Source: Dendronephthya gigantea
Taxonomy: Eukaryota
Assembly (NCBI RefSeq): GCF_004324835.1
Contig: NW_021163311.1
Location: 74,208 to 138,207 of the forward strand
DNA: 64,000 nt
Direction: 5' to 3'
Shown: positions 20,982-53,541 of the stretch, one piece after another
How the letters are laid out: every line of letters starts with the position of its first letter
Numbering within the stretch: the first letter of the stretch is position 1
Notes under the pieces: generated by a model
What the model was told of the DNA's origin: nothing
Seen by the model: the letters and a program-made list of their open reading frames with translations, nothing else
The model's database searches: none
Position numbers and translations under genes: made by a program

Positions 20982-21089
20982 CTATATTCATAAAAACGCG
21001 ATAAAATAGGTTTGAAAAATAAGAAAATTTACTCTGAAGCTTGAATCTTCCATTAAACTGAACGATATAAAGCCATGAATCGTTCTTAC

Positions 21090-23372: not shown

Positions 23373-23382
23373 CTAGAGAAAG

Positions 23383-24255: not shown

Positions 24256-24299
24256 CTAGAAATTGTTGAGAAAAGTGAGTTACAAAACGTCTTTCTCTG

Positions 24300-24500
24300 A
24301 AGGCCCTGTTACACGGTGCTATTTTTCTTGCAACTTGCAATGCAATTCTACTTTTGAGAGATCCAAATTTGGCCATTACCAAACTTTTCTGTTTATTAAA
24401 CTCCATGCACGTCTCCTACACTTACATTTTGAACACTCTGTACTAAATTACATCTCTTAAAAGTAGGATTGCATTGCATTAAGTTGCAAGAAAAATTGCA
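24300..24500. repeat. Inverted repeat with about 50-bp arms, roughly 110 bp apart
   Basis: acggtgctatttttcttgcaacttgcaatgcaattctacttttgagagat pairs with atctcttaaaagtaggattgcattgcattaagttgcaagaaaaattgcaccgtg. Confidence 0.7.
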
Positions 24501-25187
24501 CCGTGAAACACAACCTCGTTACCGCGCCGTCTTGAACACAGAAGACCCTGGGAACGAGCTTGCGTGTAATACAGCTTTGACCTCGCTTGAACCTCGTTCC
24601 CCGAGCCCGCGATTCCTCTGGCGAGAAAACAAAGGCTCTGGGAAAATCTCATTCTGAACCGGTTTGCAACCGTTCTCTGTATTTCAAAATTGGAATGGCG
24701 TGAACGACCAATCAGAATAATTTCTGTTCAGGAATTTCCTTAACAAATCATTTAATATTTATTCTTTCTTAGTACGATACAATAAAAAATTTTTACCATT
24801 AATCTATTTACAAACATTTTGCTGTTATCTCAAGTCAATAGCGATGGTTTACAAGTAAATTTGTGGCGCTTTCTTGCTATATGAGAAAGCGAATGTCTTT
24901 CTTTAATCATAACCCTGACTTGAACCGTTATTGAAATATTTGAAAAATGATTGTTTATATTCTTGTTTGCTTCTACAAGGAATCAAATTTGTCTAAAAAC
25001 TAAATGTTTTGAAACCTAGGAACCACTTGTTACGAGTTTTGTACCATAGTTCTTTGCGAAAAACATGCATAAAATTACATGATATATCTACAACTAAATA
25101 TTGTGAATATCTACTCTAAATAGTTCATATTATATGAATATGGCGATACTTCACATAAACGAGTTCAATATTTATATACGAAATAGT

Positions 25188-26792
25188 TCACACAACAACA
25201 GCAGTGGACATCCATCTTGCTTCAGACATTTCTGGAAGTTTTTCCCAAGAATACCTTTCAAAGTTGAAACCTTCAACTGTCTTCAGGTATTCTTCCTCAC
25301 GAAACCCTCCCAGGACTACAATGTTGTTTCCAATAACAACTGCAGTACATCCCCTCCTCTTACATCTCATTGATGGCAGCACGTGACTTTGTTCTGTCTT
25401 GACATTGTAAATGATAACTGTATCTAATGTCTTGCCATGTTTGTCAACGCCACCAATAACAACAATGTTGTCTCCCCATCTCACACTTGCCATACGACTC
25501 ACTTCATACGGCAGTGGTGACAACTGTTTCAGCTCATTCTTCTTTATATCGTACAGTACAACACTGCTGAGGTCGTAATTGCGAGTTGAAATTCCACCAA
25601 CTATCAACAAATTATCATCAAATATTTCCATGCTGTGATATTGTCTTGGTTCTGGCATTCTTGATAAGGTCTTCACAGTATAGGGAGGAACTAGCTGGAC
25701 TGCTCTGATCAAGTCAGATGAACCATTTCCATTATCACCTCCAGAGACTATCAACTGATCATTATACAGCACACTGCTGTGGTTTTTCAACTTATCAGGT
25801 AGTTTAACAGGACAGTCACTCCAGTGTGTTGAGAGATCAGAGTTTGAGTCAGTATTCATTCTAATCATATCATCAACAATGCCAGAAAAACCACAGGTAC
25901 CCCCAGCTATAGTTATATGATTGTTATAAATAAATGAAGTCGCTCCATAACGTTTCTTTGGCATTGATTGTAATGGCGACCATGTTCTTTGACGCCAGTT
26001 AAACATCTCTACAGAGTTAGTTCTGACACCTCCAGCAACAATTATATTTTCCTTATCACCACTTGGTCTATTTCTTACTTTTCTTGTGTTTTCTTCTTTC
26101 TTGCCCTCCATCGTGATAAGAACGTCCTTCATTTCATCAAAAGCTCTGACCAAAGCTGTTTTCAATCCTTTCACTTCGTTGTTACCCGCTTCGAGTTTTC
26201 CTTCGATATCTGCTTTTAAATCCGCGGTATTTTCGTCTATTTTTCTCCCTAAATTTGTTATTTTAGTTTCAATTGTTACATTATTCTTCTCGATATTCGC
26301 CATTCTTTCCTCCACATCTGCCAAAGTTTTCGTCATTTCTCCGCACGAGTGACACTTCAACTTTCGGAATTCACAGACTTCACTTTCATGGTGAATAAGA
26401 TCACGCTTGTTGACAATTAAACCACAGCCTTGGTTTGTACAAACGGCTGGTGTATATCCACATGTATCTTCATGGTGGTCAAGATGCTGTAATTCGACAA
26501 CTTCTTGACAACCTCTGTCGATGTAAACGCAACGAATTTTTGATTCATTCAAAAAATATTTTACCATTCGCGGTGCTTCGATCAAAGTCTCTACGGTCAG
26601 TTCATCAGCACACGTTGGACATGTTTGAGAATTTTCCAGATGTTTCGTAATACAACAACGGCAAAAAGAATGCTGGTATCTCGAACACATAACCGGCTCT
26701 TTCAAGACATTGAAACAAATCTGACACAGGAAATTTTGATTCACTTTGTCCACAAATCTTTCTTCATCGTAGCCTTGTATATATGAAGCCAT
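25188..26792 (-). CDS. RING-HC / TRAF-type zinc finger / coiled-coil / six-bladed Kelch protein, array copy 1 (534 aa, intact)
   Basis: Single uninterrupted ORF. It has the RING signature CQICFNVLKEPVMCSRYQHSFCRCCITKHLENSQTCPTC. The TRAF zinc finger is CVYIDRGCQEVVELQHLDHHEDTCGYTPAVCTNQGCG...CEFRKLKCHSCGE. A heptad-rich segment follows, then six blades each built on a G-G doublet (IIVAGG, ITIAGG, LIVSGG, LLIVGG, IVVIGG, IVVLGG). Confidence 0.85.
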   Translation of the reverse strand: MASYIQGYDEERFVDKVNQNFLCQICFNVLKEPVMCSRYQHSFCRCCITKHLENSQTCPTCADELTVETLIEAPRMVKYFLNESKIRCVYIDRGCQEVVELQHLDHHEDTCGYTPAVCTNQGCGLIVNKRDLIHHESEVCEFRKLKCHSCGEMTKTLADVEERMANIEKNNVTIETKITNLGRKIDENTADLKADIEGKLEAGNNEVKGLKTALVRAFDEMKDVLITMEGKKEENTRKVRNRPSGDKENIIVAGGVRTNSVEMFNWRQRTWSPLQSMPKKRYGATSFIYNNHITIAGGTCGFSGIVDDMIRMNTDSNSDLSTHWSDCPVKLPDKLKNHSSVLYNDQLIVSGGDNGNGSSDLIRAVQLVPPYTVKTLSRMPEPRQYHSMEIFDDNLLIVGGISTRNYDLSSVVLYDIKKNELKQLSPLPYEVSRMASVRWGDNIVVIGGVDKHGKTLDTVIIYNVKTEQSHVLPSMRCKRRGCTAVVIGNNIVVLGGFREEEYLKTVEGFNFERYSWEKLPEMSEARWMSTAVVV

Positions 26793-28544
26793 ATTTCACG
26801 TCGTTCTTGTGTCGTAATAATAAAGCAAGTTCTGTGTTGTTTGTCGCTCTGTAGTATAAACCTCGCTGTATAGACTGAATATAGATACAGTGTTCGTTCT
26901 TGGAGAAGTCTGTGTATTTGCTTGAAATCTTTTGATCGGTTTAGAAAAGGCAGGAAAATATCGCTTCGGTATAAAGTGTTTAAAGCGTCTTTTGTTGACA
27001 GGAATTTGTAGTATGGAAAAAGATATTTTTATCAGGTCTTGTGACAAAAGGTCATCACCTCTTGTTCAAATACTGATTTGCAATTGGTTGTGTTTTAGTG
27101 TTTACGTTGGTAGGAATTTCTTATTTCATTATATGGAAATGAGTTCGAAGAAAACGATACTTTATACCAAGAATAATCAATCATAATAATGAAATATTTA
27201 GACGAAGTACATTGTAATCGATGTTGATAAAGTCTGCATCAGAATATGTCTCAAATCTTTTACATAATCATGTGTTAAAACATACAAACTGCCTTTGTTT
27301 AAAAATATTTCACACAACGCTAGGCAGACTGATATATATTTTGTTTATAATATCACAATGGGTGGTCGCGAGGTAATATTATTACTGGTTTCAACTGGTT
27401 TTTTTAGCCAGGATTTTTAATACGAGTGTTTTAACGTCCTAATAGTCGACTAATTCCTAAGTATTAAGACGTGTCTTTATACTGACGTTTGTCGTAGCTT
27501 ATTTGCTGCTACTGAAAAATGTCGCCGTTATGAATTTTTGCAACTATTTTGTTGCAAAATATCAGGATTTGTAATTGTTCAGCCAAATAATATATGAAAA
27601 TGATATTCCTCGGTCTGTTGTATAAAAAGGTATTGAATCACAATTGGTCAATCACAATTCCGTATTCTGTAGTTAACTACGATAATTATCTGTCGCATTG
27701 CATTGGATCAATCCTTTTATATAATATAAACTCACATTCGCTCTTGTCAGCTCACTCCGTACACTGTATATAGCTCAGTGACCAGAGCTGTTGACGTCAT
27801 CGCTCATGACGTAATGTTTGATTGCTGAAGGAAGCCTGGAAGTCTGGTAATTCCTAAATTCTTCTAAACTGTCCCAAGGTTAGGACTTAAAACTATATAA
27901 ATTTCACTCGATTTTCCATCAACCAAATACTCACACGTAAAAATGGTTCGATTCGACTCAAATGAAAAATAATTTTGCCATTTCTACGAGTGTTTTCGTA
28001 CGAATTTAGAAAGAACTTTATAAGAAAGTGTCTTTATAACCAAACTTATCCATGCAAAAAGGAATAAAAACATTGACAATGGACCGTTTAGGGATTTCCT
28101 CAATAAATCATTTAATATTTATTCTTTCTTAGTAGGATACAACATAAAAATTTTTACAATTAATCTATTTACAAACATTTTGCTGTTGTCTCAAGTCAAT
28201 AGCGATGGTTTACAAGCAAATTTGTGGCGCTTTCTTGCTATATGGGAAAGCGAATGTCTTTGTTAATCATAACCCTGATTTAAACCGTTAATGAAATATT
28301 TGAAAAATGATTGTTTATATTCTTGTTTCCTTCTACAAGGAATGAAATTTGTCTAAAAACTAAATGTTTTGAAATCTAGGAACCACTTGTTACGAACTTT
28401 CGCCACAATCCTTCTCAAAAAACATGCATAAAATTATATAATATATTTACAACTAAATATTTTGAATATCTGCTCTAAATAGTTCATATTATGATTATGG
28501 CTATACTTCACATAAACGAGTTCATCAAGATCCGACGTCACTTT

Positions 28545-30147
28545 TCACACAACAACAGCATTGTGAATCCATCTTGCTTCAGACATTTCTGGAAGTTTTT
28601 TCCAAAAATACCTTTCAAAGTTGAAACATTCAACTGACTTCAACTTTCCTCCATCACCCCACCCTCCCAGGACTACAATGTTGTTTTCAATAACAACTGC
28701 AGTACATCCCTTTCTCTTACATCTCATTGATGGCAGCATGTGACTTTGTTCTGTCTTGATATTGTAAATGATAACTGTATCTAATGTCTTGCCATGTTTG
28801 TCAGTGCCACCAATAACAACGATGTTGTCTCCCCATTTCACAATTGCCATATCACTCACTTCATACGGCAGTGGTGACAACTGTTTCAGCTCATTCTTCT
28901 TATATCGTACAGCACAACACTGCTTAGGTTGTCTTTGTTATTACCAGTTCTTCCACCAACTATCAACAATTTATCATCAAATATTTTCATGCTGTGACCT
29001 TGTCTTGGTTTTGGCATTCTTGATAAGGTCTTCACAGTATAGGGAGGAACAAGCTGGACTGCTCTGATCAAGTTAGATGAAATAATTCCATCATCACCTC
29101 CAGAGACTATCAACTGATCATTATACAGCACACTGCTGTGGTTTCTCAACTCACGAGGTAGTTTAACAGGACAGTTACTCCAGTGTGTTGAGAGATCAGG
29201 GTTTGGGTCAATATTCATTCTAATCATATCATCAACAATGTCAGGAAAAACAGAGCAACCCCCAGCTATAGTCATATGATTGTTGTAAATAAATGAAGTC
29301 GCTCCCCAAAGTTTCTCTGGCATTGATTGTAATAGCGACCATGTTCTTTGACGCCAGTTAAACATCTCTACAGAGTTAGTTCCTACACCTCCAGCGACAA
29401 TTATATTTTCCTTATCACCATTTGGTCTATTTCTTTTTTTTCCTGTGTTTTCTTCTTTCTTGCCCTCCATTGTGATAAGAACGTTCTTCATTTCATCAAA
29501 AGCTCTGACCAAAGCTGTTTTTAATCCTATGACTTCGTTGTTAACCGCTTCGAGTTTTCCTTCCAGATCTGCTTTTAAATCTGCGACTGTGGTATTTCTC
29601 GCCATATTTTTTTCTAAATTTGTTATTTTAGTTTCAATTGTTGTATTATTCTTCGCCATTCTTTCCTCCATATCTGCCAAAGTTTTGGTCATTTCTCCGC
29701 ACGAGTGACACTTCAACTTTCGGAATTCACAGACTTCACTTTCATGGTGAATAAGATCACGCTTGTTGACAATTAAACCACAGCCTTGGTTTGTACAAAC
29801 GGCTGGTGTATATCCACATGTATCTTCATGGCGGTCAAGATGCTGTAATTCTACAACTTCTTGACAACCTCTGTCGATGTAAACGCAACGAATTTTCGAT
29901 TCATTTAAGAACTCTTTTACATTCGCGGTGGTTCGATCAAAGTCTCTAAGTTCAGTTCATCAGCGCACGTTGGGCATGTTTGAGAATTTTCCAGATGTTT
30001 CGTAATACAACAACGGCAAAACGAATGCTGGTTTGTCGGACAAAGGACAGGCTCTTTCAAGACATTGAAGCAAATCTGACACAGGAAATTTTGATTGATT
30101 TTGTCCACAAACCTTTCTTCATCGTAGCCTTGTATATATGAAGCCAT
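28545..30147 (-). pseudogene. RING-TRAF-Kelch array copy 2, disrupted (ORF pieces 28545-28880, 28886-29716, 29917-30147)
   Basis: It has the same frameshift near 28883 as copy 6. It also has an additional 1-bp deletion near 29925 (ttttacattcgcgg against ttttaccattcgcgg). Confidence 0.75.
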
Positions 30148-31900
30148 ATTTCACGTCGTTCTTGTGTCGTAATAATAAAGCAAGTTCTGTGTGTTTGTCG
30201 CTCTGTAGTATAAACCTCGCTGTATAGACTGAATATAGATACAGTGTTCGTTCTTAGAGAAGTCTGTGTATTTGCTTGAAATCTTTTGATCGGTTTAGAA
30301 AAGGCAGACAAGTATCGCTTCGGTATAAAGTGTTTAAAGCGTCTTTTGTTGACAGGAATTTGTAGTATGAAAAAAAGTTATTTTTATCAGGTCTTGTGAC
30401 GAAAGGTCATCACCTCTTCTTCAAATACTGACTTGCAATTGGTTGTGTTTTAGTGTTTATGCAGGTAGGAATTTCTTATTTCATTATATGGAAATGAGTT
30501 CAAAGAAAACGATACTTTATACCAAGAAAAATCAATCATAATAATGAAATATTTAGACTAAGTACATTGTAATCGATGTTAATAAAGTCTGCATCAGAAT
30601 TTGTCTCAAATCTTTTACAAAATCATGTGTTAAAACATACAAACTGCCTTTGTTTAAAAATATTTCACACAACGCTACACAGACTGATATATATTTTGTT
30701 TATAATATCGCAACGGGTGGTTGCCACTTGCCAGGCAATATTATTACTGGTTTCAACTGGTTTTATCAGCCAGGATTTTTAATACGAGTATTTTTACGTT
30801 TTAATAGTCGACTAATTCCTAAGTATTAAGACGTGTCTTACTGACGTTTGTCGTAGCTTATTTGCTGCTACTGAAAAATGTCGCCATTATGAAATTTTGC
30901 AACTATTTTGTTGCAAAATATCAGGATTTGTAATTGTTCAGCGAAATAATATATGAAAATGATATTCCTCGGTTTGTTATATAAAAAGGTATTGAATCAC
31001 AATTGGTCAATCACTATTCCGTATTTTGTAGTTAACTACGATAATTATCTGTCACATTGCATTGGATCAATCCTTTTATATAATATAAACTCACATTCGC
31101 TCTTGTCAGCTCACTCCGTACACTGTATATAGCTCAGTGACCAGAGCTGTCACGACGTCATCGCTCATGACGTAATGTTTGATTTCTGAAGGAAACCTGG
31201 AAGTCTGGTAATTGCTAAATTATTCTCAACTGTCCCAAGGTTAGGACTTAAAACGATATAAATTTCGCTCGATTTTCCATCAACCAAAAACTCACACGTA
31301 AAAATGGTTCGATTCGACTCAAATGAAAAATAATTTTGCCATTTGTACGAGTGTTTTCGTACGAATTTAGAAAGAACTTTATAAAAAAGTGTCGTTATAA
31401 CCAAACTTATCCATGCGAAAAGGAATAAAAACATTGAAAATGGACCGTTTAGGGATTTCCTTAATAAATCATATAATATTTATTCTTTCTTAGTAGGATA
31501 CAATATGAAAAATTTTTACCAATAATCTATTTACAAACATTTTGCTGTTGTCTCAAGTCAATAGCGATGGTTTACAAGCAAATTTGTGGCACTTTCTTGC
31601 TATATGGGAAAGCGAAAGTCTTTCATTAATCATAACCCTGATTTCAACCGTTATTGAAATATTTGAAAAAAGATTGTTTATATTCTTGTTTCCTTCTACA
31701 AGGAATTAAATTTGTCTAAAAACTAAATGTGTTGAAATCTAGGAACCACTTGTTACGAACTTTCGCCATAATCCTTCTCAAAAAAACATGCATAATATCT
31801 ATCTACAACTAAATATTTTGAATATCAACTCCAAATAGTTCATATTATGATTATGGCGATACTTCACATAAACGAGTTCATGAACATCCTACGTCACTTT

Positions 31901-33511
31901 TCACACAACAACAGCAGTGGACATCCATCTTGCTTGAGACATTTCTGGAAGTTGTTCCCAAGAATACCTTTCAAAGTTGAAACCTTCAACTGACTTTAGC
32001 TCTCCTTCCTCACCCAACCCTCCCAGGACTACAATGTTGTTTTCAATAACAACTGCAGTACATCCACTCCTCTTCCATCTCATTGATGGCAGCATGTGAC
32101 TTTGTCCTGTCTTGACATTGTAAATGATAACTGTATCAAATGCATTGATATGTTTGTCAGCACCACCAATAACAAGAATGTTGTCTCCCCATCTCACAGT
32201 TGCCATGTGACTCACTTCATACGGCAGTGGTGACAACTGTTTCAGCTCATTCTTCTTTATATCGTACAGTACGACACTGCTGAGGCTGTCTTTGTAATTG
32301 TCAGTTGTACTTCCACCAACTATCAACAAATTATCATCAAATATTTCCATGCTGTGATATTGTCTTGGTTCTGGCATTCTTGATAAGGTCTTCACACTAT
32401 AGGGAGGAACAAGCTGGACTGATCTGATCAATTCAGATGAAACATTTCCATTATCACCTCCAGAGACTATCAACTGATCATTATACAGCACACTGCTGTG
32501 GTAGCACAACTTATCAGGTAGTTTAACAGGACAGTAACTCCAGTGTGTTGAGAGATCAGGGTTTGGGTCAATATTCATTCTAATCATATCATCAACATCG
32601 CCAGACCCATCACGACCCCCAGCTATAGTCATATGACTGTTATAAATAAACGAAGTCGCTGCATCACGATTCTCTGGCACTGATTGTAATGGCGACCATG
32701 TTCTTCGACGCCAGTTAAACATCTCCACAGAGTTAGTTTTATAACCTGCAGCAACAATTATATTTTCCTTAACACCACTTGGTCTATTTCTTACTTTTCT
32801 TGTGTTTTCTTCTATCTTCCCCTCCATCGTGATAAGAACGTCCTTCATTTCATCAAAAGCTCTGACCAAAGCTGTTTTCAATCCTTTGACTTCGTTGTTA
32901 ACCGCTTCGTGTTTTCCTTCCATATCTGCTTTCATATCTGCTTTTAAATCCACGGTATTTTTGTCTATTTTTCTCTCTAAATTTGTTATTTTAGTTTCAA
33001 TTGTTATATTATTCTGCGCCATTCTTTCCTCCATATCTGCCAAAGTTTTCGTGATTTCTCCGCACGAGTGACACTTCAACTTTCGGAATTCACAGACTTC
33101 ACTTTCATGGTGAATAAGATCACGCTTGTTGACAATTGAACCACAGCCTTGGTTTGTACAAACGGCTGGTGTATATCCACATGTATCTTCATGGCGGTCA
33201 AGATGCTGTAATTCTACAACTTCTTGACAACCTCTGTCGATGTAGAGGCAACGAATTTTCGATTCATTTAAGAACTCTTTTACCATTCGCGGTGGTTCGA
33301 TCAAAGTCTCTAAGGTCAGTTCATCAGCACACGTTGGGCATGTTTGAGAATTTTCCAGATGTTTCGTAATACAACAACGGCAAAACGAATGCTGGTTTGT
33401 CGGACAAAGGACAGGCTCTTTCAAGACATTGAAGCAAATCTGACACAGGAAATTTTGATTCATTTTGTCCACAAACCTTTCTTCATCGTAACCTTGTATA
33501 TATGAAGCCAT
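31901..33511 (-). CDS. RING-TRAF-Kelch protein, array copy 3 (536 aa, intact)
   Basis: Full-length ORF with the same domain order. It differs from the other copies mainly in the Kelch loops. Confidence 0.85.
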   Translation of the reverse strand: MASYIQGYDEERFVDKMNQNFLCQICFNVLKEPVLCPTNQHSFCRCCITKHLENSQTCPTCADELTLETLIEPPRMVKEFLNESKIRCLYIDRGCQEVVELQHLDRHEDTCGYTPAVCTNQGCGSIVNKRDLIHHESEVCEFRKLKCHSCGEITKTLADMEERMAQNNITIETKITNLERKIDKNTVDLKADMKADMEGKHEAVNNEVKGLKTALVRAFDEMKDVLITMEGKIEENTRKVRNRPSGVKENIIVAAGYKTNSVEMFNWRRRTWSPLQSVPENRDAATSFIYNSHMTIAGGRDGSGDVDDMIRMNIDPNPDLSTHWSYCPVKLPDKLCYHSSVLYNDQLIVSGGDNGNVSSELIRSVQLVPPYSVKTLSRMPEPRQYHSMEIFDDNLLIVGGSTTDNYKDSLSSVVLYDIKKNELKQLSPLPYEVSHMATVRWGDNILVIGGADKHINAFDTVIIYNVKTGQSHMLPSMRWKRSGCTAVVIENNIVVLGGLGEEGELKSVEGFNFERYSWEQLPEMSQARWMSTAVVV

Positions 33512-34261
33512 ATTTCACGTCGTTCTTGTGTCGTAATAATAAAGCAAGTTCTGTGTTGTTTGTCGCTCTGTAGTGTAAACCTCGCTGTATAGACTGAATA
33601 TAGATACAGTGTTCGTTCTTAGAGAAGTCTGTGTATTTGTTTGAAATCTTTTGATCGGTTTAGAAAAGGCAGACAAATATCGCTTCTGTATAAAGTGTTT
33701 AATAAAGCGTCTTATGTAGACAGAAATTTGTTGCTATGAAAATATGATATTATTTTCACGTCTTGTGACAAAAGGTCATCACCTGCTGTTCAAATGCTGA
33801 CTTGCAATTGGTTGTGTTTATGTTGCTAGGAATTTCTTATTTTATTATATGGAAATGAGTTCGAAGAAAAGGATACTTTATACCAAGAAAAATCAATCAT
33901 AATAATGAAATATTTAGACGAAGTACATTTTTGGGGAATTGTCATAGTATAGGGTTAACCTCACGATTTCCTGTTCAAGATTGTTGTGAATGTTATCTTG
34001 TTATCTTGAATAAATTATGTATGTATATGTATGTATGTATGTACATTGTAATCGATGTTGATAAAGTCTGCATCAGAATTTGTCTCAAATCTTTTACAAA
34101 ATCATGTGTTAAAACATACAAACTGCCTTTGTTTAAAAATATTTCACACAACGCTAGGCAGACTGATATATATTTTGTTTATAATATCTTAACGGGTGGT
34201 CGCCAGGCAATATTATTATTGGTTTCAACTGGTTTTATCAGTGAGGGATTTTAATACCAGG

Positions 34262-39228: not shown

Positions 39229-40839
39229 TCACACAACAACAGCAGTGTGTATCCATCTCGCTCGAGACATTTCTGGAAGTTCTTCCCAAGAATACCTTTC
39301 AAAGTTGATACCTTCAACTGCCTTCAGCTTTCCTTCCTCACCCCTCCCTCCCAGGACTACAATGTTGTTTTCAATAACAACTGCAGTACATCCCCTCCTC
39401 TTACATCTCATTGATGGCAGCATGTGACTTTCTTCTGTCTTCACATTGTAAATGATAACTGTATCTAATTCATTGCCATGTTTGTCAACGCCACCAATAA
39501 CAACAATGTTGTCTCCCCATCTCACAGTTGCCATAGCACTCACATCATACGGCAGTGGTGACAACTGTTTCAGCTCATTCTTCTTTATATCGTACAGTAC
39601 GACACTGCTGAGGTTATCTTTGTAATTGTCAGTTGTACTTCCACCAACTATGAACAAATTATCATCAAATATTTCCATGCTGTGATATTGTCTTGGTTCT
39701 GGCATTCTTGATAAGGTCTTCACAGTATAGGGAGGAACAAGCTGGACTGCTTTGATCAGGTCAGATGAAACATTTTTATTACCACCTCCAGAGACTATCA
39801 ACTGATCATTATACAGCACACTGCTGTGGTTTCTCAACTTATCAGGTAGTTTAACAGGACAGTCACTCCAGTGTGTTGAGAGATCACAGTTTGGGCCAGT
39901 ATTCATTCTAATCATATCATCAACAATGCCAGATAAACCACAGTCACCCCCAGCTATAGTCATATGATTGTTATAAATAAATGAAGTCGCTCCATAACGA
40001 TTCTTTGGCATTGATTGTAATGGCGACCATGTTCTTTGACGCCAGTTAAACATCTCTACAGAATTAGTTCCTACACCTCCAGCAACAATTATATTTTCCT
40101 TATCACCACTTGGTCTATTTCTTACTTTTCTTGTGTTTTCTTCTATCTTGCCCTCCATCGTGATAAGAACGTCCTTCATTTCATCAAAAGCTCTGACCAA
40201 AGCTATTTTCAAACCATCGACTTTGTTGTTAACCGCTTCGTGTTTTCCCTCCATATCTGCTTTTAAATCTGTGGTATTTCTCGACATGTTTCGCTCTAGT
40301 TTTGTTATTTTAGTTTCAATTGTTATATTATTCTTCTCGATATTCGCCATTCTTTCCTCCATATCTGCCAAAGTTTTCGTGATTTCTCCGCACGAGTGAC
40401 ACTTCAACTTTCGGAATTCACAGACTTCACTTTCATGGTAAATAAGATCACGCTTGTTGACAATTAAACCACAGCCTTGGTTTCTACAAACGGCTGGTGT
40501 ATATCCACATGTATCTTCATGGCGGTCAAGATGCTGTAATTCCACAACTTCTTGACAACCTCTGTCGATGTAAACGCAACGAATTTTTGATTCCTTCAAA
40601 AAATCTCTTACCATTCGTGGTGGCTCGACTAAAGTCTCTACGGTCAGTTCATCAGCACACGTTGGACATGTTTGAGAATTTTCAAGATGTTTCGTAATAC
40701 AACAACGGCAAAAAGAATGCTGGTTTCTCGAACACATAACCGGCTCTTTCAAGACATTGAAGCAAATCTGACAAAGGAAATTTTGATTCACTTTGTCCAC
40801 AAACCTTTCTTCATCGTAGCCTTGTATATATGAAGCCAT
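39229..40839 (-). CDS. RING-TRAF-Kelch protein, array copy 5 (536 aa, intact)
   Basis: Full-length ORF. Confidence 0.85.
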   Translation of the reverse strand: MASYIQGYDEERFVDKVNQNFLCQICFNVLKEPVMCSRNQHSFCRCCITKHLENSQTCPTCADELTVETLVEPPRMVRDFLKESKIRCVYIDRGCQEVVELQHLDRHEDTCGYTPAVCRNQGCGLIVNKRDLIYHESEVCEFRKLKCHSCGEITKTLADMEERMANIEKNNITIETKITKLERNMSRNTTDLKADMEGKHEAVNNKVDGLKIALVRAFDEMKDVLITMEGKIEENTRKVRNRPSGDKENIIVAGGVGTNSVEMFNWRQRTWSPLQSMPKNRYGATSFIYNNHMTIAGGDCGLSGIVDDMIRMNTGPNCDLSTHWSDCPVKLPDKLRNHSSVLYNDQLIVSGGGNKNVSSDLIKAVQLVPPYTVKTLSRMPEPRQYHSMEIFDDNLFIVGGSTTDNYKDNLSSVVLYDIKKNELKQLSPLPYDVSAMATVRWGDNIVVIGGVDKHGNELDTVIIYNVKTEESHMLPSMRCKRRGCTAVVIENNIVVLGGRGEEGKLKAVEGINFERYSWEELPEMSRARWIHTAVVV

Positions 40840-42587
40840 ATTTCACGTCGTTCTTGTGTCGTAATAATAAAGCAAGTTCTGTGTTGTTTGTCGCTCTGTA
40901 GTATAAACCTCGCTGTATAGACTGAATATAGATGTAGTGTTCGTTCTGGGAGAAGTCTGTGTATTTGCTTGAAATCTTTTGATCGGTTTAGAAAAGGCAG
41001 ACAAATATCGCGTCTGTATAAAGTGTTTAAAGCGTCTTTTGTTGACAGGAATTTGTAGCATGGAAAAATATATTTTTATCAGGTCTTGTGACAAAAGGTC
41101 ATCACCTCTAGTTCAAATACTGACTTGCAATTGGTTGTGTTTTAGTGTTTATGTTAGCAAGAATTTCTTATTTCATTATATGGAAATGAGTTCGAAGAAA
41201 ACGATACTTTATACCAAGAAAAAATCAATCATAATAATGAAATATTTAGACTAAGTACATTGTAATCGATGTTAATAAAGTCTGCATCAGAATTTGTCTC
41301 AAATCTTTTACAAAATCATGTGTTAAAACATACAAACTGCCTTTGTTTAAAAATATTTTATACGACGCTAGGCAGACTCATATATATTTTGTTTATAATA
41401 TCTTAACGGGTGGTCGCCAGGCAATATTATTATTGGTTTCAACTGGTTTTATCAGTGAGGGTTTTTAATACGAGTGTTTTTACGTTTTAATAGTCGACTA
41501 ATTCCTAAGTATTAAGATATGTCTTATTGACGTTTGTCGTAGCTTATTTGCAACCGAAAAACGTCGCCATTATGAAATTTTGCAACCACTTTGTTGCAAA
41601 ATATCAGGATTTGTAATTGTCCAGCGAAATAATATATGAAAATGATATTCCTCGGTCTGTTGTATAAAAAGGTATTGAATCACAATTGGTCAATCACAAT
41701 TCCGTATTCTGTAGTTAACTACGATAATTATCTGTCACATTGCATTGGATCAATCCTTTTATATAATATAAACTCACATTCGCTCATGTCAGCTCACTCC
41801 GTACACTGTATATAGTTCAGTGACCAGAGCTGTTCACGTCATCGCTCATGACGTAATGTTTGATTTCTGAAGGAAGCCTGGAAGTCTGGTAATTCCTAAA
41901 TTCTTCTAAACTGTCCCAAGGTTAGGACTTAAAACTATATAAATTTCACTCGATTTTCCATCAACCAAATACTCACACGTAAAAATGGTTCGATTCGACT
42001 CAAATGAAAAATAATTTTGCCATTTCTACGAGTGTTTTCGTACGAATTTAGAAAGAACTTTATAAGAAAGTGTCTTTATAACCAAACTTATCCATGCAAA
42101 AAGGAATAAAAACATTGACAATGGACCGTTTAGGGATTTCCTCAATAAATCATTTAATATTTATTCTTTCTTAGTAGGATACAACATAAAAATTTTTACA
42201 ATTAATCTATTTACAAACATTTTGCTGTTGTCTCAAGTCAATAGCGATGGTTTACAAGCAAATTTGTGGCGCTTTCTTGCTATATGGGAAAGCGAATGTC
42301 TTTCGTTAATCATAACCCTGATTTAAACCGTTAATGAAATATTTGAAAAATGATTGTTTATATTCTTGTTTCCTTCTACAAGGAATGAAATTTGTCTAAA
42401 AACTAAATGTTTTGAAATCTAGGAACCACTTGTTACGAACTTTCGCCACAATCCTTCTCAAAAAACATGCATAAAATTATATAATATATTTACAACTAAA
42501 TATTTTGAATATCTGCTCTAAATAGTTCATATTATGATTATGGCTATACTTCACATAAACGAGTTCATCAAGATCCGACGTCACTTT

Positions 42588-44191
42588 TCACACAACAACA
42601 GCATTGTGAATCCATCTTGCTTCAGACATTTCTGGAAGTTTTTTCCAAAAATACCTTTCAAAGTTGAAACATTCAACTGACTTCAACTTTCCTCCATCAC
42701 CCCACCCTCCCAGGACTACAATGTTGTTTTCAATAACAACTGCAGTACATCCCTTTCTCTTACATCTCATTGATGGCAGCATGTGACTTTGTTCTGTCTT
42801 GATATTGTAAATGATAACTGTATCTAATGTCTTGCCATGTTTGTCAGTGCCACCAATAACAACGATGTTGTCTCCCCATTTCACAATTGCCATATCACTC
42901 ACTTCATACGGCAGTGGTGACAACTGTTTCAGCTCATTCTTTTTATATCGTACAGCACAACACTGCTTAGGTTGTCTTTGTTATTACCAGTTCTTCCACC
43001 AACTATCAACAATTTATCATCAAATATTTTCATGCTGTGACCTTGTCTTGGTTTTGGCATTCTTGATAAGGTCTTCACAGTATAGGGAGGAACAAGCTGG
43101 ACTGCTCTGATCAAGTTAGATGAAATAATTCCATCATCACCTCCAGAGACTATCAACTGATCATTATACAGCACACTGCTGTGGTTTCTCAACTCACGAG
43201 GTAGTTTAACAGGACAGTTACTCCAGTGTGTTGAGAGATCAGGGTTTGGGTCAATATTCATTCTAATCATATCATCAACAATGTCAGGAAAAACAGAGCA
43301 ACCCCCAGCTATAGTCATATGATTGTTGTAAATAAATGAAGTCGCTCCCCAAAGTTTCTCTGGCATTGATTGTAATAGCGACCATGTTCTTTGACGCCAG
43401 TTAAACATCTCTACAGAGTTAGTTCCTACACCTCCAGCGACAATTATATTTTCCTTATCACCATTTGGTCTATTTCTTTTTTTTCCTGTGTTTTCTTCTT
43501 TCTTGCCCTCCATTGTGATAAGAACGTTCTTCATTTCATCAAAAGCTCTGACCAAAGCTGTTTTTAATCCTATGACTTCGTTGTTAACCGCTTCGAGTTT
43601 TCCTTCCAGATCTGCTTTTAAATCTGCGACTGTGGTATTTCTCGCCATATTTTTTTCTAAATTTGTTATTTTAGTTTCAATTGTTGTATTATTCTTCGCC
43701 ATTCTTTCCTCCATATCTGCCAAAGTTTTGGTCATTTCTCCGCACGAGTGACACTTCAACTTTCGGAATTCACAGACTTCACTTTCATGGTGAATAAGAT
43801 CACGCTTGTTGACAATTAAACCACAGCCTTGGTTTGTACAAACGGCTGGTGTATATCCACATGTATCTTCATGGCGGTCAAGATGCTGTAATTCTACAAC
43901 TTCTTGACAACCTCTGTCGATGTAAACGCAACGAATTTTCGATTCATTTAAGAACTCTTTTACCATTCGCGGTGGTTCGATCAAAGTCTCTAAGTTCAGT
44001 TCATCAGCGCACGTTGGGCATGTTTGAGAATTTTCCAGATGTTTCGTAATACAACAACGGCAAAACGAATGCTGGTTTGTCGGACAAAGGACAGGCTCTT
44101 TCAAGACATTGAAGCAAATCTGACACAGGAAATTTTGATTGATTTTGTCCACAAACCTTTCTTCATCGTAGCCTTGTATATATGAAGCCAT
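42588..44191 (-). pseudogene. RING-TRAF-Kelch array copy 6, frameshifted (420 aa + 111 aa pieces)
   Basis: The frame breaks at about 42925 between the ORFs 42929-44191 and 42588-42923. The sequence is almost identical to copy 2, flanks included. Confidence 0.75.
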
Positions 44192-45898
44192 ATTTCACGT
44201 CGTTCTTGTGTCGTAATAATAAAGCAAGTTCTGTGTGTTTGTCGCTCTGTAGTATAAACCTCGCTGTATAGACTGAATATAGATACAGTGTTCGTTCTTA
44301 GAGAAGTCTGTGTATTTGCTTGAAATCTTTTGATCGGTTTAGAAAAGGCAGACAAGTATCGCTTCGGTATAAAGTGTTTAAAGCGTCTTTGTTGACAGGA
44401 ATTTGTAGTATGAAAAAAAGTTATTTTTATCAGGTCTTGTGACGAAAGGTCATCACCTCTTCTTCAAATACTGACTTGCAATTGGTTGTGTTTTAGTGTT
44501 TATGCAGGTAGGAATTTCTTATTTCATTATATGGAAATGAGTTCAAAGAAAACGATACTTTATACCAAGAAAAATCAATCATAATAATGAAATATTTAGA
44601 CTAAGTACATTGTAATCGATGTTAATAAAGTCTGCATCAGAATTTGTCTCAAATCTTTTACAAAATCATGTGTTAAAACATACAAACTGCCTTTGTTTAA
44701 AAATATTTCACACAACGCTACACAGACTGATATATATTTTGTTTATAATATCGCAACGGGTGGTTGCCACTTGCCAGGCAATATTATTACTGGTTTCAAC
44801 TGGTTTTATCAGCCAGGATTTTTAATACGAGTATTTTTACGTTTTAATAGTCGACTAATTCCTAAGTATTAAGACGTGTCTTACTGACGTTTGTCGTAGC
44901 TTATTTGCTGCTACTGAAAAATGTCGCCATTATGAAATTTTGCAACTATTTTGTTGCAAAATATCAGGATTTGTAATTGTTCAGCAAAATAATATATGAA
45001 AATGATATTCCTCGGTCTGCTGTATAAAAAGGTATTGAATCACAATTGGTCAATCACAATTCCGTATTCTGTAGTTAACTACGATAATTATCTGTCGCAT
45101 TGCATTGGATCAATCCTTTTATATAATATAAACTCACATTCGCTTTTGTCAGCTCACTCCGTACACTGTATATAGCTCAGTGACCAGAGCTGTCACGACG
45201 TCATCGCTCATGACGTAATGTTTGATTTCTGAAGGAAGCCTGGAAGTCTGGTAATTCCTAAATTCTTCTCAACTGTCCCAAGGTTAGGACTTAAAACTAT
45301 ATAAATTTCACTCGATTTTCCATCAACCAAATACTCACACGTAAAAATGGTTCGAATCGACTCAAATGAAAAATAATTTTGCCATTTCTACGAGTGTTTT
45401 CGTACGAATTTAGAAAGAACTTTATAAGAAAGTGTCTTTATAACCAAACTTATCCATGCAAAAAGGAATAAAAACATTGACAATGGACCGTTTAGGGATT
45501 TCCTTAATAAATCATTTAATATTTATTCTTTCTTAGTAGGGTACAATATAAAAAAATTTACCATTAATCTATTTACAAACATTTTGCTGTTGACTCAAGT
45601 CAAAAGCGATGGTTTACAAGCAAATTTGTGGCGCTTTCTTGCTATATGGGAAAGCGAAAGTCTTTCGTTAATCATAACCCTGATTTGAACCGTTATTGAA
45701 ATATTTGAAAAATGATTGTTTACATTCTTGTTTGCTTCTACAAGGAATCAAATTTGTCTAAAAACTAAATGTTTTGAAATCTAGGAAGCACTTGTTACGA
45801 ACTTTGACCACAATCCTTCTCAAAAAACATGTAAAAAATTATATAATATATTTACAACTAAATATTGTAAATATCTACTCTAAATAGTTCATATTATG

Positions 45899-46136
45899 CA
45901 GAGTTGCAAAAAGAGTTCAACCTTCCTCCGGTAGGATTTCAAGTTTTGAAAACCTTACTCAAAATGACGTTACGTCACTGAGTCAAGTAGCAGCCAGCAT
46001 AAAGAAATATTTGGTTTTTTGGTACATACATGTGATCAATTAGAGTGTTCAACTTTGAACCTTCCTCACAAACCTCGTTCAAAGCAAACCTTCCTCCGGG
46101 TGGTACCCGCATACCCGCAGCTTTTTTGCAACTCTG
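45899..46136. mobile_element. Second copy of the hAT-like MITE, inserted about 50 bp 3' of array copy 7; TSD atattatg
   Basis: The TSD is at 45891-45898 and 46137-46144. Unoccupied paralogous sites (catattatgattatgg) are present downstream of the other array copies. Confidence 0.75.
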
Positions 46137-46190
46137 ATATTATGATTATGGCAATACTTCAAATAAACGAGTTCAATATTCACATATTGT

Positions 46191-47826
46191 TCACACAACA
46201 ACAGCAGTGGGCCGCCATCTTACTTTAGACATTTCTGGAAGTTCTTCCCAAGAATACCTTTCAAAGTTGAAACCTTCAACTGACTTCAGCTTTCCTCCCT
46301 CACCCAACCCTCCCAGGACTACAATGTTGTTTTCAATAACAACTGCAGTACATCCAAACCTCTTACATCTCATTGATGGCAGCATGTGACTTTGTTCTGT
46401 CTTGACATTGTAAATGATAACTGTATCTAATGGCTTGCTATGTTTGTCAACACCACCAATAACAACAATGTTGTCTCCCCATCTCACAGTTGCTATATCA
46501 CTCACTTCATACGGCAGTGGTGACAACTGTTTCAGCTCATTCTTCTTTATATCGTACAGTACGACACTGCTGAGGTTGTCTTTGGAATAAGGAGTTGAAC
46601 TTCCACCAACTATCAACAAATTATCATCAAATATTTCCATGCTGTGACATTGTCTTGGTTTTGGCATTCGTGATAAGGTCTTCACAGTATAGGGAGGAAC
46701 AAGCTGGACTGATCTGATCAAGTCAGATAAACCATTTCTATTACCACCTCCAGAGATTATCAACTGATCATTATACAGCACACTGCTGTGGTATCTCAAC
46801 TTATCAGGTAGTTTAACAGGACAGCCATTCCAGTGTGTTGAGAGATCAGGGTTTGGGTCAATATTCATTCTAATCATATCATCAGCAATGCCAGACCAAC
46901 CACAGCCACCCTCAACTATAGTCATATGATTGTTATAAATAATTGAAGTCGCTCCATGACGTTCCTCTGGCATTGATTGTAATGGCGACCATGTTCTTTG
47001 ACGCCAGTTAAACATCTCTACAGAGCTAGTTCCTACACCTCCAGCAACAATTATATTTTCCTTATCACCACTTGGTCTATTTCTTACTTTTCTTGTGTTT
47101 TCTTCTATCTTGCCCTCCATCGTCATAAGAACGTCCTTCATTTCATCAAAAGCTCTGACCAAAGCTGTTTTTAATCCTTTGACTTCGTTGTTAACCGCTT
47201 CGTGTTTTCCTTCCATGTCTGCTTTTATATCTGCCGTATTTTTCTCGATATTCCGTGCAACATTTCGCTCCAAATTTGTTATTTTAGTTTCAATTGTTAC
47301 ATTATTCTTCCTCATGTTCTTCTCCATATTCGCCATTCTTTCCTCCATGTCTGCCAAAGTTTTCGTTATTTCTCCGCACGAGTGACACTTCAACTTTCGG
47401 AATTCACAGACTTCACTTTCATGGTGAATAAGATCACGCTTGTTGACAATTAAACCACAGCCTTGGTTTGTACAAACGACTGGTGTGTATCCACATGTAT
47501 CTTCATGGCGGTCAAGATGCTGTAATTCTACAACTTCTTGACAACCTCTGTCGATGTAAACGCAACGAATTTTCGATTCATTTAAGAAATCTTTAACCAT
47601 TCGCGGTGCTTCGATCAAAAGTCTCTACAGTCAGTTCATCAGCACACGTTGGACATGTTTGAGAATTTTCCAGATGTTTCGTAATACAACAACGGCAAAA
47701 AGAATGCTGGTATCTCCAACACATAACCGGCTCTTTCAAGACGTTGAAGCAAATGTGACAATGAAAATTTCGATCGATTTTGTTCACAAACCTTTCTTCA
47801 TCGTAGCCTTGTACATATGAAGCCAT
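46191..47826 (-). pseudogene. RING-TRAF-Kelch array copy 7, frameshifted near the RING/TRAF junction (475 aa + 77 aa pieces)
   Basis: An extra A at about 47600 (gatcaaaagtctc against gatcaaagtctc in the other copies). This could also be a sequencing error. A hAT-like MITE sits about 50 bp downstream of the stop. Confidence 0.6.
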
Positions 47827-49302
47827 ATTTCACGTCGTTCTTGTGTCGTAATAATAAAGCAAGTTCTGTGTTGTTTGTCGCTCTGTAGTATAAACCTCGC
47901 TGTATAGACTGAATATAGATAAAGTGTTCGTTCTTGGGAAGAAGTCTGTGTTTGTACTTTTTCAAATCGCTACAAAATTATCCGTTCGGAACAGCAGACA
48001 AATATCGCTTACGTGTAAAGTGGTTATAGACAGGAATTTGCTGCTATGAAAATATGATATTATTATCATGTCTTGTGACAACAAACAGGTCATCACCTGC
48101 TGTTCAAATGCTGACTTGCAATTGGTTGTGTTTATGTTGATAGGTATTTCTTATTTCATTATATGGAAATGAGTTCGAAGAAAATTATACTTTATACCAA
48201 GAAATATCAATCATAATAATGAAATATTTAGACGAAGTACATTGTAATCGATGTTGATAAAGTCTGCATCAGAATTTGTCTGAAATCTTTTACAAAATCA
48301 TGTGTTAAAACATACAAACTGCCTTTGTTTAAAAATATTTCACACAACGATACACAGACTGATATATATTTTGTTTATAATGTCACAACGGGTGGTCGCC
48401 AGGCAATATTATTATTGGTTTCAAGTGGTTTTATCAGCGAGGGTTTTTTAACGAGTGTTTTAACGTTCTAATTATTAATTGTTTTAATGTTCTAAGTATT
48501 AAGACGTGTCTTACTGACGTTTGTCGTAGCTTATTTGCTAGCGAAAAATGTCGCAATTATGAAATTTTGCAACTATTTTGTTGCAAAATACCAGGATTTG
48601 TAATTGTTCGGCGCATTATTGCGAGGAAAGTCCAAATAACATCATCTTGGAAACGCAAGATTTGAGTTCGTAGAACTCTCGTTATGTTTCGACTTTATTC
48701 CAAAGTTTTTTGTCAATGGGCTTGACAGTAACTTTGGAATAACAGGTTTTCTTCTTTTGATGGATGAGATTGAGTTGATAAGTTACGAATGTTTAAATAA
48801 GAGCAATTGTACCCAAAGAGCATTCATAACTATTCACTCGTTTCCATCTGTCACTTGTCGCTTTGCGAACATATGCGAACAGGCTTGTAGCTTTGTTTTT
48901 CGCCTTTGCTTCTACCCGCAAATTTTAGGGCGGGTGGAACACAGGTCTGTGTTCGGGCTAAATTTATCGGCGATATCCATTGTCGGTGGAAATTAATGCA
49001 TAAAACGCTTTGGCTTTTAAAAGAAATTTTATCTACTTTATTGATAACCGACAATGGATCGTGGAAAACCGCTGGTAAAAGTAACACAATGAATCCCAGA
49101 TTCTGAAGTTTGGTTTCCATTTGATCGTAATTGTCGTGAAGAAGCCATTTTCATCGATGAGAAATAGTCTGGATGTGACTTTGTCTTTACTTCAGTATTT
49201 AAATCGGTCATTGTCGATTGGACACACATAGAAATACTCTCAAACACATCGACCACCTTGACATGTTCACGACACTCACGAACAAACGGAAACCAGAAGC
49301 CA

Positions 49303-49735
49303 GGGGCCGGTTGTTCGAAAGGCGTTTAGTTTAAACGGTGGATAAGCCAAAGTTTGAAATTCCTCTCATAGATCTTGTGAATGACTAAATCTGCATCTTA
49401 TGCATTAAATATGTACTTTCATTGACAATTAAGCCATTTACATCGCAATATTTCAGATCAGTTGTTCAATAAATAAATAGTTTTGTTTTCCATTTTGAAC
49501 TTATCCACCGTTTAAGCTAAACGCCTTTCGAACAACCGGCCCCTGGAGAACTATTTATTGAGCAACTGAGCTGAAATATTTCGATGTAAATAGTTTAATT
49601 TTCAATGGAAGTACACATTGAATGCATAAGATGCAAGTTCAGTCATTCACAAGATGTATGAGAGTATTTTTAAACTTGGCTTATCCACCGTTTAAACTAA
49701 ACGCCTTTCGAACAACTGGCCCCAGTTGTTCAAAG
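49303..49735. mobile_element. Rearranged dimer of a MITE family A variant (TIR ggccggttgttcgaaaggcgtttagtttaaacggtggataagcc)
   Basis: A complete copy at 49303-49548 is followed by an internally inverted partial copy. Confidence 0.55.
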
Positions 49736-49965
49736 CTTGGTTAGCGCTAACCCTGGGTTAAATTTTAATCCACTTTTAAGTGTTTCTGAGCCGCTGTTCG
49801 TTTTAAAATCTTTACAAAATATGGCTTTGCCAGTTCAGAAAATATTTATGGAAAAAGATATTCAACTTTGTGAACAAGCGATTAAAAATATTGATGTAAA
49901 GATTTCCTTTAACCCAGGGTTAAGCTAACCTGCTTTTGAACAACCGGCCGCAGGCATAAATGAAA
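49722..49965. mobile_element. MITE family C (TIR …gttgttcaaagc.ggttagcgctaaccctgggttaaa)
   Basis: Other copies are at about 4268-4500 and 8235-8400 (truncated). There is a shared internal sequence of about 190 bp. Confidence 0.55.
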
Positions 49966-50048
49966 ACCAGCCCTTAGGAGCTGTTGTTGAACCATGGTTC
50001 AAGGATTAGAAATTGATTAAACACCCACCCAGGCCCCTCGCCACCTAC

Positions 50049-52646: not shown

Positions 52647-52679
52647 CTGAAATGAGTCAAAATACAAACTTAAAATCAG

Positions 52680-53520: not shown

Positions 53521-53541
53521 CAAAACCTTTTCATGACTTAC

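Follow-up and report, generated by a model that had tools for sequence, protein, structure and literature searches.

A 64,000-nucleotide stretch of Dendronephthya gigantea contig NW_021163311.1 (positions 74,208 to 138,207 of the forward strand; this whole stretch is called the window below, and coordinates are given in its own numbering) contains a minus-strand gene for PARP4, the vault PARP. A tandem array of 23.9 kb, made up of seven intronless genes in the orientation of the host, appears to have become lodged in the linker intron of this gene. The array genes are predicted to encode RING E3 ubiquitin ligases in which two TRAF-type zinc fingers and a probable coiled coil are followed by a six-blade Kelch propeller. 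We read the locus as a PARP4-intron array of autonomous genes from an octocoral superfamily, with an immune-type role and an accidental nesting; taken together, these propositions have a probability of roughly 0.7. The interest of the locus looks to lie in the uncharacterised family and not in its link with PARP4, which looks incidental.

The host gene and its probable array-bearing intron

The assignment to PARP4 is supported by the content and order of the exons. PARP regulatory and catalytic domains come first and are followed by VIT and vWA domains, collinear with PARP+VIT(+VWA) proteins, the join between the two parts being made in silico. The features of the host gene that bear on the intron are listed below (E, expectation value).

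52290-52667, minus strand: PARP_reg exon of PARP4 (Pfam PARP_reg, E 4.6e-10)
52022-51891, 51481-51146 and 50350-50087, minus strand: PARP4 exons upstream of the gap, found with tblastn
50049..50272, minus strand: final ART (catalytic) exon of PARP4 (sequence; Pfam PARP, E 7e-5; tblastn)
24256..50048, minus strand: PARP4 intron, putatively single, 25,793 nt, between the ART and VIT parts (GT/AG, phase, alignment of the spliced product)
23948..24255, minus strand: first VIT exon, comprising the acidic linker and the start of VIT (Pfam VIT, E 2.7e-9; VIT_2, E 3.2e-8; tblastn)
24215-23925, 23391-23161, 22921-22742, 21775-21614, 21182-20814, 20411-20226 and 19288-19061, minus strand: PARP4 exons downstream of the gap, found with tblastn

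The final ART exon codes for DFTEFTYDLEHAPDGY...EYVVYSVNQQRIRYLVEF...VIGRE and closes in phase 2; its start at 50272 was placed from the acceptor TTTTCAG/GAC (a slash marks the splice boundary here and below). The donor that follows it reads GTC ATT GGA CGT GAA AG/GTAGGT, with the GT at 50048-50047. On the far side of the gap the acceptor is TTTTCTCAACAATTTCTAG/T (...TTTCTAG/T), with the AG at 24257-24256, and the VIT exon opens at 24255 and closes in phase 1 at G/GTATTG. The phases of donor and acceptor fit (2 nt + 1 nt): AG and T make a serine codon, giving VIGRE-S-EDVLVEPTT...MSSSDEEEF...VIT, and the frame after the join reads through EDVLVEPTTAISLDDEAMSSSDEEEF into the VIT domain. The C-terminal open reading frame (ORF) at 3082-3357 has no Pfam match.

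The junction itself was searched with a 330-residue query spliced in silico across the gap. This query matches single chains with both PARP and VIT domains, some of them named PARP4 and including vertebrate ones, at about 50% identity and 98-100% coverage. The pairwise alignments run unbroken through the acidic linker, with identities of 64% (P0125), 52% (P0121) and 47% (P0126), and tblastn with single PARP+VIT proteins finds collinear minus-strand exons on both sides of the gap. Because such single proteins span the gap and the spliced product aligns continuously, the array is placed inside the host gene and on the host strand; its location in the 25,793-nt intron is well supported in silico, and the ART and VIT exons behave as one gene. 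The original prediction, made from the letters of the window, had described the gap of about 26 kb as phase-compatible with one intron and had named separate ART and VIT genes as the finding that would remove the nesting. The in-phase splice sites and collinear relatives confirm the former, and the latter is made unlikely by the single proteins that map across the gap with a continuous linker.

Anatomy of the array and its coding sequences

The array comprises seven minus-strand direct-repeat units with start-to-start distances of 3352-3717 nt, as determined from the ORF listing and by repeat finding. Whole units are 93-95% identical in MAFFT alignments, and units 2 and 6 reach 98.3%. Spacing, identity and position bear out the seven same-strand units of about 3.4 kb that had been predicted between the ART and VIT exons. 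The excess in unit length comes partly from insertions in the spacers of units 3 and 4 that resemble miniature inverted-repeat transposable elements (MITEs).

24726..48613, minus strand: tandem array block, seven periods minus 505 bp (23.9 kb; boundaries from blastn and edge sequences)
48614..50048, no strand assigned: non-array remainder of the intron beside the donor (1.43 kb; blastn), which holds the MITE-like inverted repeat 49300-49723
24256..24725, no strand assigned: non-array remainder of the intron beside the acceptor (470 bp; blastn)

The outer edges of the array are sharp. One, at 24726, follows the unit 1 stop codon by about 460 nt; the other, at 48613, precedes the unit 7 ATG by about 790 nt. 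The remaining 1.9 kb of the intron consists of unique sequence or other interspersed repeats, and the intron before the array would therefore have been about 1.9 kb long or less. A 505-bp junction piece (e.g. 27581-28085) is present at all six internal junctions and at neither outer end. Such a pattern could result from the en-bloc copying of a section of an array that already existed, or from filler DNA inserted at the first duplication. The absence of the piece from both array ends hints at an en-bloc origin from an older array.

The MITE-like element at 49300-49723 has inverted arms of about 170 nt, and copies of it occur near 11655, 12431, 34257, 37859, 53802 and 54663. These copies are scattered over the PARP4 introns, with two of them within array spacers.

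The coding sequences (CDSs) are listed in transcription order.

46191..47826, minus strand: unit 7 CDS, first in transcription order; one extra T in a T-run, RING-proximal; ORF as assembled 46191-47618 (475 residues)
42588..44191, minus strand: unit 6 CDS; frameshift by loss of one A at CDS alignment column 1278, in the fourth Kelch blade
39229..40839, minus strand: unit 5 CDS, intact, 536 residues (ORF listing)
35618..37228, minus strand: unit 4 CDS, intact, 536 residues (ORF listing)
31901..33511, minus strand: unit 3 CDS, intact, 536 residues (ORF listing)
28545..30147, minus strand: unit 2 CDS; two 1-nt deletions (G and A) at CDS alignment columns 228 and 1278
25188..26792, minus strand: unit 1 CDS, intact, 534 residues, last in transcription order (ORF listing)

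As assembled, four of the seven units have intact ORFs, while units 2, 6 and 7 are frameshifted, the lost A of unit 6 being common to unit 2. Thus, of the seven single-exon ORFs of 535 codons that had been proposed, the number of units stands, and intact frames (534-536 residues) are confined to four of them. Every indel lies within a homopolymer run of 2-4 nt, and after repair there is no further stop, the frame remaining open to the normal stop codon; units 2, 6 and 7 are therefore either very young pseudogenes or products of assembly errors. The unit 5 protein was used as the reference for database searches and for the structure model.

Predicted promoter, leader and poly(A) signal of each unit

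Two short motifs recur without change in every unit and are given here for unit 5.

41204..41215, minus strand: TATA-like box GGTATAAAGTAT of unit 5, exact in all seven units
38796..38809, minus strand: AAGAATAAATATTA, candidate poly(A) signal (AATAAA) of unit 5, exact in all seven units

Exact copies of GGTATAAAGTAT also start at 27157, 30512, 33873, 37594, 44555 and 48187. The box sits about 365-375 nt upstream of the ATG, and a conserved leader of about 340-370 nt lies between the two. An in-frame TGA at -6..-4, A at -3 and G at +4 are kept in all seven units, so the start codons stand in a good Kozak context. At the other end, exact copies of AAGAATAAATATTA also start at 24753, 28113, 31474, 35182, 42155 and 45517; the signal lies about 420 nt past the stop codon, and about 660 nt past it in unit 7, where there is more intervening sequence.

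The upstream regions were also compared with those of four copies from another genome (sample ERZ25073802; loci L005 and L006). The core TGGTATAAA is invariant in these copies as well. Similarity between the genomes opens about 10 nt before TGGTATAAA and continues at about 80% up to the ATG; nothing aligns further upstream, and at the DNA level the similarity ends at the stop codon. Because it starts just before TGGTATAAA, the core promoter and leader appear to travel with the CDS. Retroposition was considered as the mode of spread and ruled out, as copies of the gene include the TATA box and about 10 nt of the sequence before it; co-copying of the promoter points instead to duplication at the DNA level and argues against exonisation into PARP4. 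Each unit appears to be a gene and transcription unit of its own.

Protein architecture

Pfam places a C3HC4 RING at residues 23-61 (zf-C3HC4_2, E 1.8e-8 to 1.4e-7, above the gathering cut-off). Across 123 aligned sequences, the RING ligands C23, C26, C36, H41, C44, C47 and C58 never vary, and conservation of C61 is at least 90%. Matches to Sina_ZnF/zf-TRAF fingers at 88-156 have Pfam E values of 4e-5 to 5e-4, below the gathering cut-offs, and two C-C-H-C fingers (C88/C95/H107/C111 and C118/C123/H135/C140) are invariant in the same 123 sequences. When the PDB is searched by sequence, residues 4-152 match TRAF6 RING-zinc-finger chains (3hcs, 5vo0 and related entries) with E 6e-9 to 1e-8, and the C-terminal half matches the Kelch domains of KLHL20, KLHL12 and KEAP1. 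Kelch repeats extend from about 250 to 536 (propeller 246-536), with Pfam E values for Kelch_1 and Kelch_6 down to 5e-35, and six GG doublets stand in register at 254, 297, 351, 399, 449 and 497.

The AlphaFold2 monomer model has a predicted local distance difference test (pLDDT) score above 90 in the Kelch part and of about 85 in the RING. Between them it contains long helices at 152-184 and 201-231 with pLDDT below 50, and this helical region is probably a coiled coil. Foldseek returns template modelling (TM) scores of about 0.9 to six-blade Kelch structures, namely KLHL12, KEAP1, KLHL20 and designed six-blade Kelch proteins. Pfam, PDB, AlphaFold2 and Foldseek therefore agree on the predicted order of RING-HC, TRAF/SIAH-type finger, helical region and six-blade Kelch. 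On this architecture the product would be a RING E3 ubiquitin ligase.

No B-box family is found among the Pfam matches of the four intact copies at E <=0.01. Together with the matching TRAF6 RING-finger structures, this upholds the description of a TRIM-like layout in which a TRAF finger replaces the B-box. The unit proteins have no Pfam match to MATH, BTB, BACK or F-box; the sole WD40 match is negligible (E 1e-3, 19 bits against a cut-off of 200), and no USP8-interaction family is among the Pfam matches. These results also bear on the names that automatic annotation gives to the family, including those of NRDP1 (RNF41) and RNF151. NRDP1 combines a B-box with a C-terminal USP8-interacting domain, and RNF151 is a short RING and TRAF-finger protein without a propeller. 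Identity with either was rejected, the unit proteins having no B-box or USP8-interaction match and carrying a 290-residue Kelch domain; the database names reflect N-terminal similarity only.

Size of the family and arrays elsewhere

A protein search returned 1669 homologues at E <=1e-5. The best 120 of these 1669 have the same architecture and 67-76% identity, and many homologues are co-located on contigs, for example twelve on one 427-kb contig. In a representative library (E <=1e-30) the family forms at least 272 clusters at 50% identity, and at least 20 among the representatives listed align nearly full length at 33-47% identity. Automatic database names for the family are 'RING finger 151-like', 'NRDP1', 'TRAF6-like' and 'PDZRN3-like'. 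The named members come only from the octocoral Paramuricea clavata ('RING finger 151-like', 'NRDP1', 'kinase'). A search seeded with the most divergent representative returned only the same architecture and only P. clavata names, and cluster look-ups for ten divergent full-length representatives returned no names. The superfamily appears to be octocoral-specific, with which these results are consistent without proving it.

A literature search for the RING/TRAF-finger/coiled-coil/Kelch architecture, or for octocoral expansions of RING, Kelch or TRAF genes, found no description. The original prediction, which did not recognise a described family here, is thus upheld as far as papers go; what it did not foresee is that the architecture is not unique to this locus and belongs to a very large family already present in databases.

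In the other genome, loci L005 and L006 contain same-strand tandem copies 3.7-8 kb apart, and no PARP, VIT or VWA gene lies within 10 kb of these arrays. At L006, four same-strand copies (4739-21725) come after a same-strand ABC_membrane_2 (ABC-transporter) exon at 1501-1791; family arrays may thus sit within or beside other host genes too. Four PARP4 loci of other eukaryotes (L001-L004) have 0.4-1 kb between the ART-end and VIT ORFs, with no called gene, and the PARP4s retrieved by a protein search across the junction were all distant ones, whose identity reached no more than 77% over short stretches. The special and possibly regulatory link to PARP4 that had been suggested does not fare well, given family arrays elsewhere with no PARP neighbour and four PARP4 loci that are empty at this position. 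Many such arrays exist, of which this is one, and its place within PARP4 is most likely specific to the lineage; the nesting would then most likely be accidental.

Selection and gene conversion

Ratios of nonsynonymous to synonymous substitution rates (dN/dS) were calculated by the Nei-Gojobori method for the six distinct copies, with bootstrap intervals. They rise along the protein from 0.27 (0.15-0.47) in the RING and zinc fingers to 0.47 (0.29-0.79) in the helical region and 1.47 (1.01-2.19) in the Kelch domain. At family-variable sites of the Kelch domain the ratio is 1.93, and over the whole protein it is 0.76.

The variable positions are themselves ordered. The columns of highest entropy among 119 homologues from outside the window recur periodically: they fall right after each GG doublet (256, 299, 353, 401, 451 and 499) and at the x of the R-x-G/H that precedes the first strand of each blade (282, 337, 385, 435, 482 and 530). 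All twelve of these sites vary among the six array copies, with a mean of 3.4 residues against 1.4 elsewhere in the Kelch domain (Fisher p 2.5e-6). In KEAP1 and KLHL proteins, the B-C and D-A loops of the propeller form the substrate pocket. By their register, the twelve variable sites are predicted to lie in these same loops, on the usual substrate face of a Kelch domain. The substitution pattern is that of a putative catalytic module under purifying selection joined to diversifying B-C and D-A substrate-face loops.

Identity is lower in coding regions (91-94%) than in spacers (94-97%), and the array proteins are 86-88% identical to one another. For units 2 and 6 the order is reversed, with 99.9% identity in the CDS and 96.8% in the flanks; since their coding sequences are more alike than their flanks, recent gene conversion is indicated.

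Proposed explanation and its alternatives

We propose that the array arose by tandem duplication of DNA, that it landed or grew in PARP4 by accident, and that gene conversion is still reshaping it. In the encoded proteins, the RING and the two TRAF fingers would recruit an E2 enzyme, the helical region would mediate oligomerisation, and the six-blade propeller would recognise the substrate. As for their role, the analogy of TRIM5, finTRIM and the F-box families of nematodes and plants makes it most likely that they recognise and ubiquitinate quickly changing targets, for instance proteins of pathogens or of other non-self origin. The only side effect on the host that seems plausible is transcriptional interference or premature polyadenylation of PARP4.

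If this is correct, the locus is of interest in several ways. Octocoral innate immunity is little characterised, and the family would be a concrete candidate for a recognition repertoire, with twelve testable positions. TRAF-type RING and fingers fused directly to Kelch form a new domain combination, within the theme of expanded ubiquitin-ligase receptors in host-pathogen conflict. The nesting on one strand also provides a natural setting in which to test whether array transcription interferes with a host gene of several domains.

Several points weigh against this explanation. The immune role is argued from analogy, and sequence predictions underlie the unit promoters, the poly(A) sites and the splicing of PARP4 over a distance of 26 kb. 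Three of the seven copies are frameshifted. The PARP4 loci used for comparison (L001-L004) are distant, at 30-60% identity, and none is from a close relative; conserved nesting within octocorals remains compatible with them. The placement of the variable sites on one face follows from strand/loop register and textbook Kelch topology. The dN/dS values come from non-independent pairwise counts among six paralogues subject to gene conversion, and the lower bound for Kelch is 1.01. Synonymous divergence is 0.13-0.16 in the N-terminal half and 0.065 in the Kelch part, with spacer divergence of 0.03-0.06, and ectopic conversion from other family members, rather than selection, could contribute to the pattern.

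The nesting could instead be functional, with the array and PARP4 forming a co-regulated antiviral or innate-immune module, or with induction of the seven array promoters and poly(A) sites turning PARP4 expression over to a short BRCT-ART isoform devoid of the VIT, vWA and vault-binding regions. In favour of such a module, PARP4 belongs to those fast-evolving PARPs that have been implicated in conflict between hosts and viruses. The strand is shared, and PARP4 transcription must read through seven conserved AATAAA signals. The open frame ends one codon past the donor, and an intron-terminated transcript would thus give a clean ART-only protein; active nested genes can indeed force intronic polyadenylation of the host gene (PMC13309782). 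We nevertheless consider a functional nesting unlikely. In the other genome the family arrays lie beside unrelated genes, and the four other PARP4 loci are empty at this position. With hundreds of paralogues per genome, chance alone puts some arrays in introns, and nested genes make up more than one tenth of mammalian genes, in about equal orientations (PMC11694760).

There would be no nesting at all if PARP4 had been split in two: a BRCT-ART gene whose stop codon is the TAG overlapping the former donor, and a VIT-vWA gene whose start codon is the in-frame ATG at 24203. This would make the array intergenic. The sequence offers some material for this: the TAG follows immediately if the donor is unused, the ATG (MSSSDEEEF) is in frame 17 codons past the acceptor, seven same-strand terminators lie in between, and ORF-based callers start VIT-vWA proteins at about this point on other genomes. 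The splice signals argue the other way, with a consensus donor (AG/GTAGGT), an acceptor made of a pyrimidine tract and AG, matching phases, and 17 open codons before the ATG. Moreover, the spliced linker equals that of single-polypeptide relatives in length and acidic character, and the 470 bp before the VIT exon yielded no promoter motif. We regard a split as distinctly unlikely.

A bolder version of the functional nesting is a rather improbable one. It would combine an octocoral-specific intracellular recognition repertoire (many hundreds of genes with twelve-site specificity, a cnidarian counterpart of restriction factors such as TRIM5 and the finTRIMs) with truncation of PARP4 on induction of the array. 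If it were true, the specificity of the repertoire would be set by the twelve propeller-loop sites and renewed by tandem duplication and gene conversion, a PARP4 isoform would be uncoupled from the vault particle, and both systems would be wired together.

The frameshifts in three of the seven copies, the 99.9% identity of the unit 2 and 6 CDSs and the overall dN/dS of 0.76 might also be taken as signs of dying pseudogenes, or of an assembly that over-expands or collapses fewer copies. Decay is at odds with the ratio of 0.27 in the RING and zinc fingers, where all zinc ligands are retained, with the clustering of substitutions in twelve periodic loop sites where an even spread would be expected, and with the absence of stops once homopolymer indels are set aside. 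An artefact is at odds with differences of 5-7% and of spacer insertions between units, which mark them as distinct copies; we find either highly improbable. Finally, we give almost no credence to the array ORFs being alternative PARP4 exons that make chimeric ART-RING-Kelch proteins: they are intronic and on the PARP4 strand, but each ATG is preceded by an in-frame TGA, the units have their own TATA box and leader, and the family consists of stand-alone proteins of about 530 residues in other genomes. Accidental nesting of autonomous genes thus remains the explanation that we prefer.

Other features of the window

Upstream of the array, an ORF of 185 residues with a HIRAN domain (59230-59787, minus strand; Pfam E 4.5e-8) and an acidic N-terminal part lies on the PARP4 strand in a PARP4 intron, with putative BRCT exons on either side (60863-61006 and 56632-56790). 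This ORF may represent another nested gene or derive from a transposon. An exon for the C-terminal domain of eIF2 gamma (61980-62195, minus strand; Pfam E 3.7e-24) indicates that about 1 kb separates the end of a same-strand upstream neighbour from the first recognisable exon of PARP4. Further upstream, an ORF of 120 residues with a GIY-YIG nuclease motif (63420-63782, minus strand; Pfam E 1e-4) may be a remnant of a Penelope-like retroelement.

A 114-nt minisatellite is present in 2.4-7.4 copies with 90-95% matches at 18734-19006, 22273-22683, 23379-23905, 51489-51813 and 52684-53526. Two of the introns that bear it flank the array-bearing intron. It was considered as a boundary feature of the array and ruled out, being dispersed over five PARP4 introns in both orientations.

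The 3' region of PARP4 contains five related ORFs of 80-117 residues (5242-11013, minus strand), 0.7-1.8 kb apart, with the pattern MKSTDSPEQKK.EDEVS...FGGFSFG...PPLL...GIYLS.C. None of them matches Pfam; they may belong to a repeat family or code, as repeated exons, for a disordered tail of PARP4. A 34-nt proline-coding tandem repeat lies at 10406-10673.

Comparison with known systems

The array proteins resemble TRAF7 in having an N-terminal RING, TRAF-type finger(s), a putative coiled coil and a C-terminal propeller in place of MATH/TRAF-C, and in being, as predicted, stand-alone RING E3 ligases; the layout of TRAF7 is RING, TRAF finger, trimeric coiled coil and WD40 (PMC11216086, PMC12801879). 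This is the nearest known layout, with Kelch replacing the WD40 propeller. The differences are that the array proteins have a six-blade Kelch where TRAF7 has a seven-repeat WD40 domain, and that their N-terminus matches TRAF6 RING-zinc-finger structures and nothing specific to TRAF7. In addition, TRAF7 is a conserved, single-copy gene, whereas the array family is hyper-expanded, intronless and tandem. The canonical TRAFs (TRAF1-6), including TRAF6, share the RING and TRAF zinc fingers by sequence match and the helical region that follows, and have MATH/TRAF-C where the array proteins carry the Kelch propeller.

With the TRIM proteins (finTRIMs, TRIM5-like and TRIM-NHL) the array proteins share a RING and putative coiled-coil E3 scaffold that ends in a C-terminal recognition domain. 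These families are also large, lineage-specific and tandem, with positive selection in recognition loops; the finTRIMs of fish are an expanded, tandemly duplicated E3 family of this kind (PMC2657112). Unlike TRIMs, the array proteins have no detected B-box and carry Kelch instead of B30.2/SPRY or NHL, and their genes are intronless and belong to a cnidarian lineage. BTB-Kelch proteins (KLHL/KEAP1), plant Kelch F-box proteins and nematode F-box proteins provide another parallel, as ubiquitin-ligase substrate receptors with six-blade Kelch domains or in expanded, rapidly evolving families; nematode F-box genes form an expanded family with positively selected recognition regions (PMC8120010). In the array proteins, by contrast, Kelch is fused directly to the RING, with no cullin adaptor domain (BTB/BACK or F-box).

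For the nesting itself, the closest parallel is the insect cluster of GMC oxidoreductase genes within an intron of Flo-2 (PMC1891103), likewise a multi-gene tandem cluster wholly inside one large intron of an unrelated host. The GMC cluster has been conserved since ancient times across insect orders and is mostly antisense to its host, whereas the PARP4 array is young (5-7% divergence), lies on the host strand and is not found at this position in the other PARP4 loci examined. The earlier view that same-strand gene families nested in an intron of a PARP gene are unusual is weakened by this precedent and by the frequency of nested genes in mammals, among which those sharing the orientation of the host fall only a little short of the opposite kind (PMC11694760). 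Set beside these systems, the locus is best seen as an illustrative case rather than a new kind of system.

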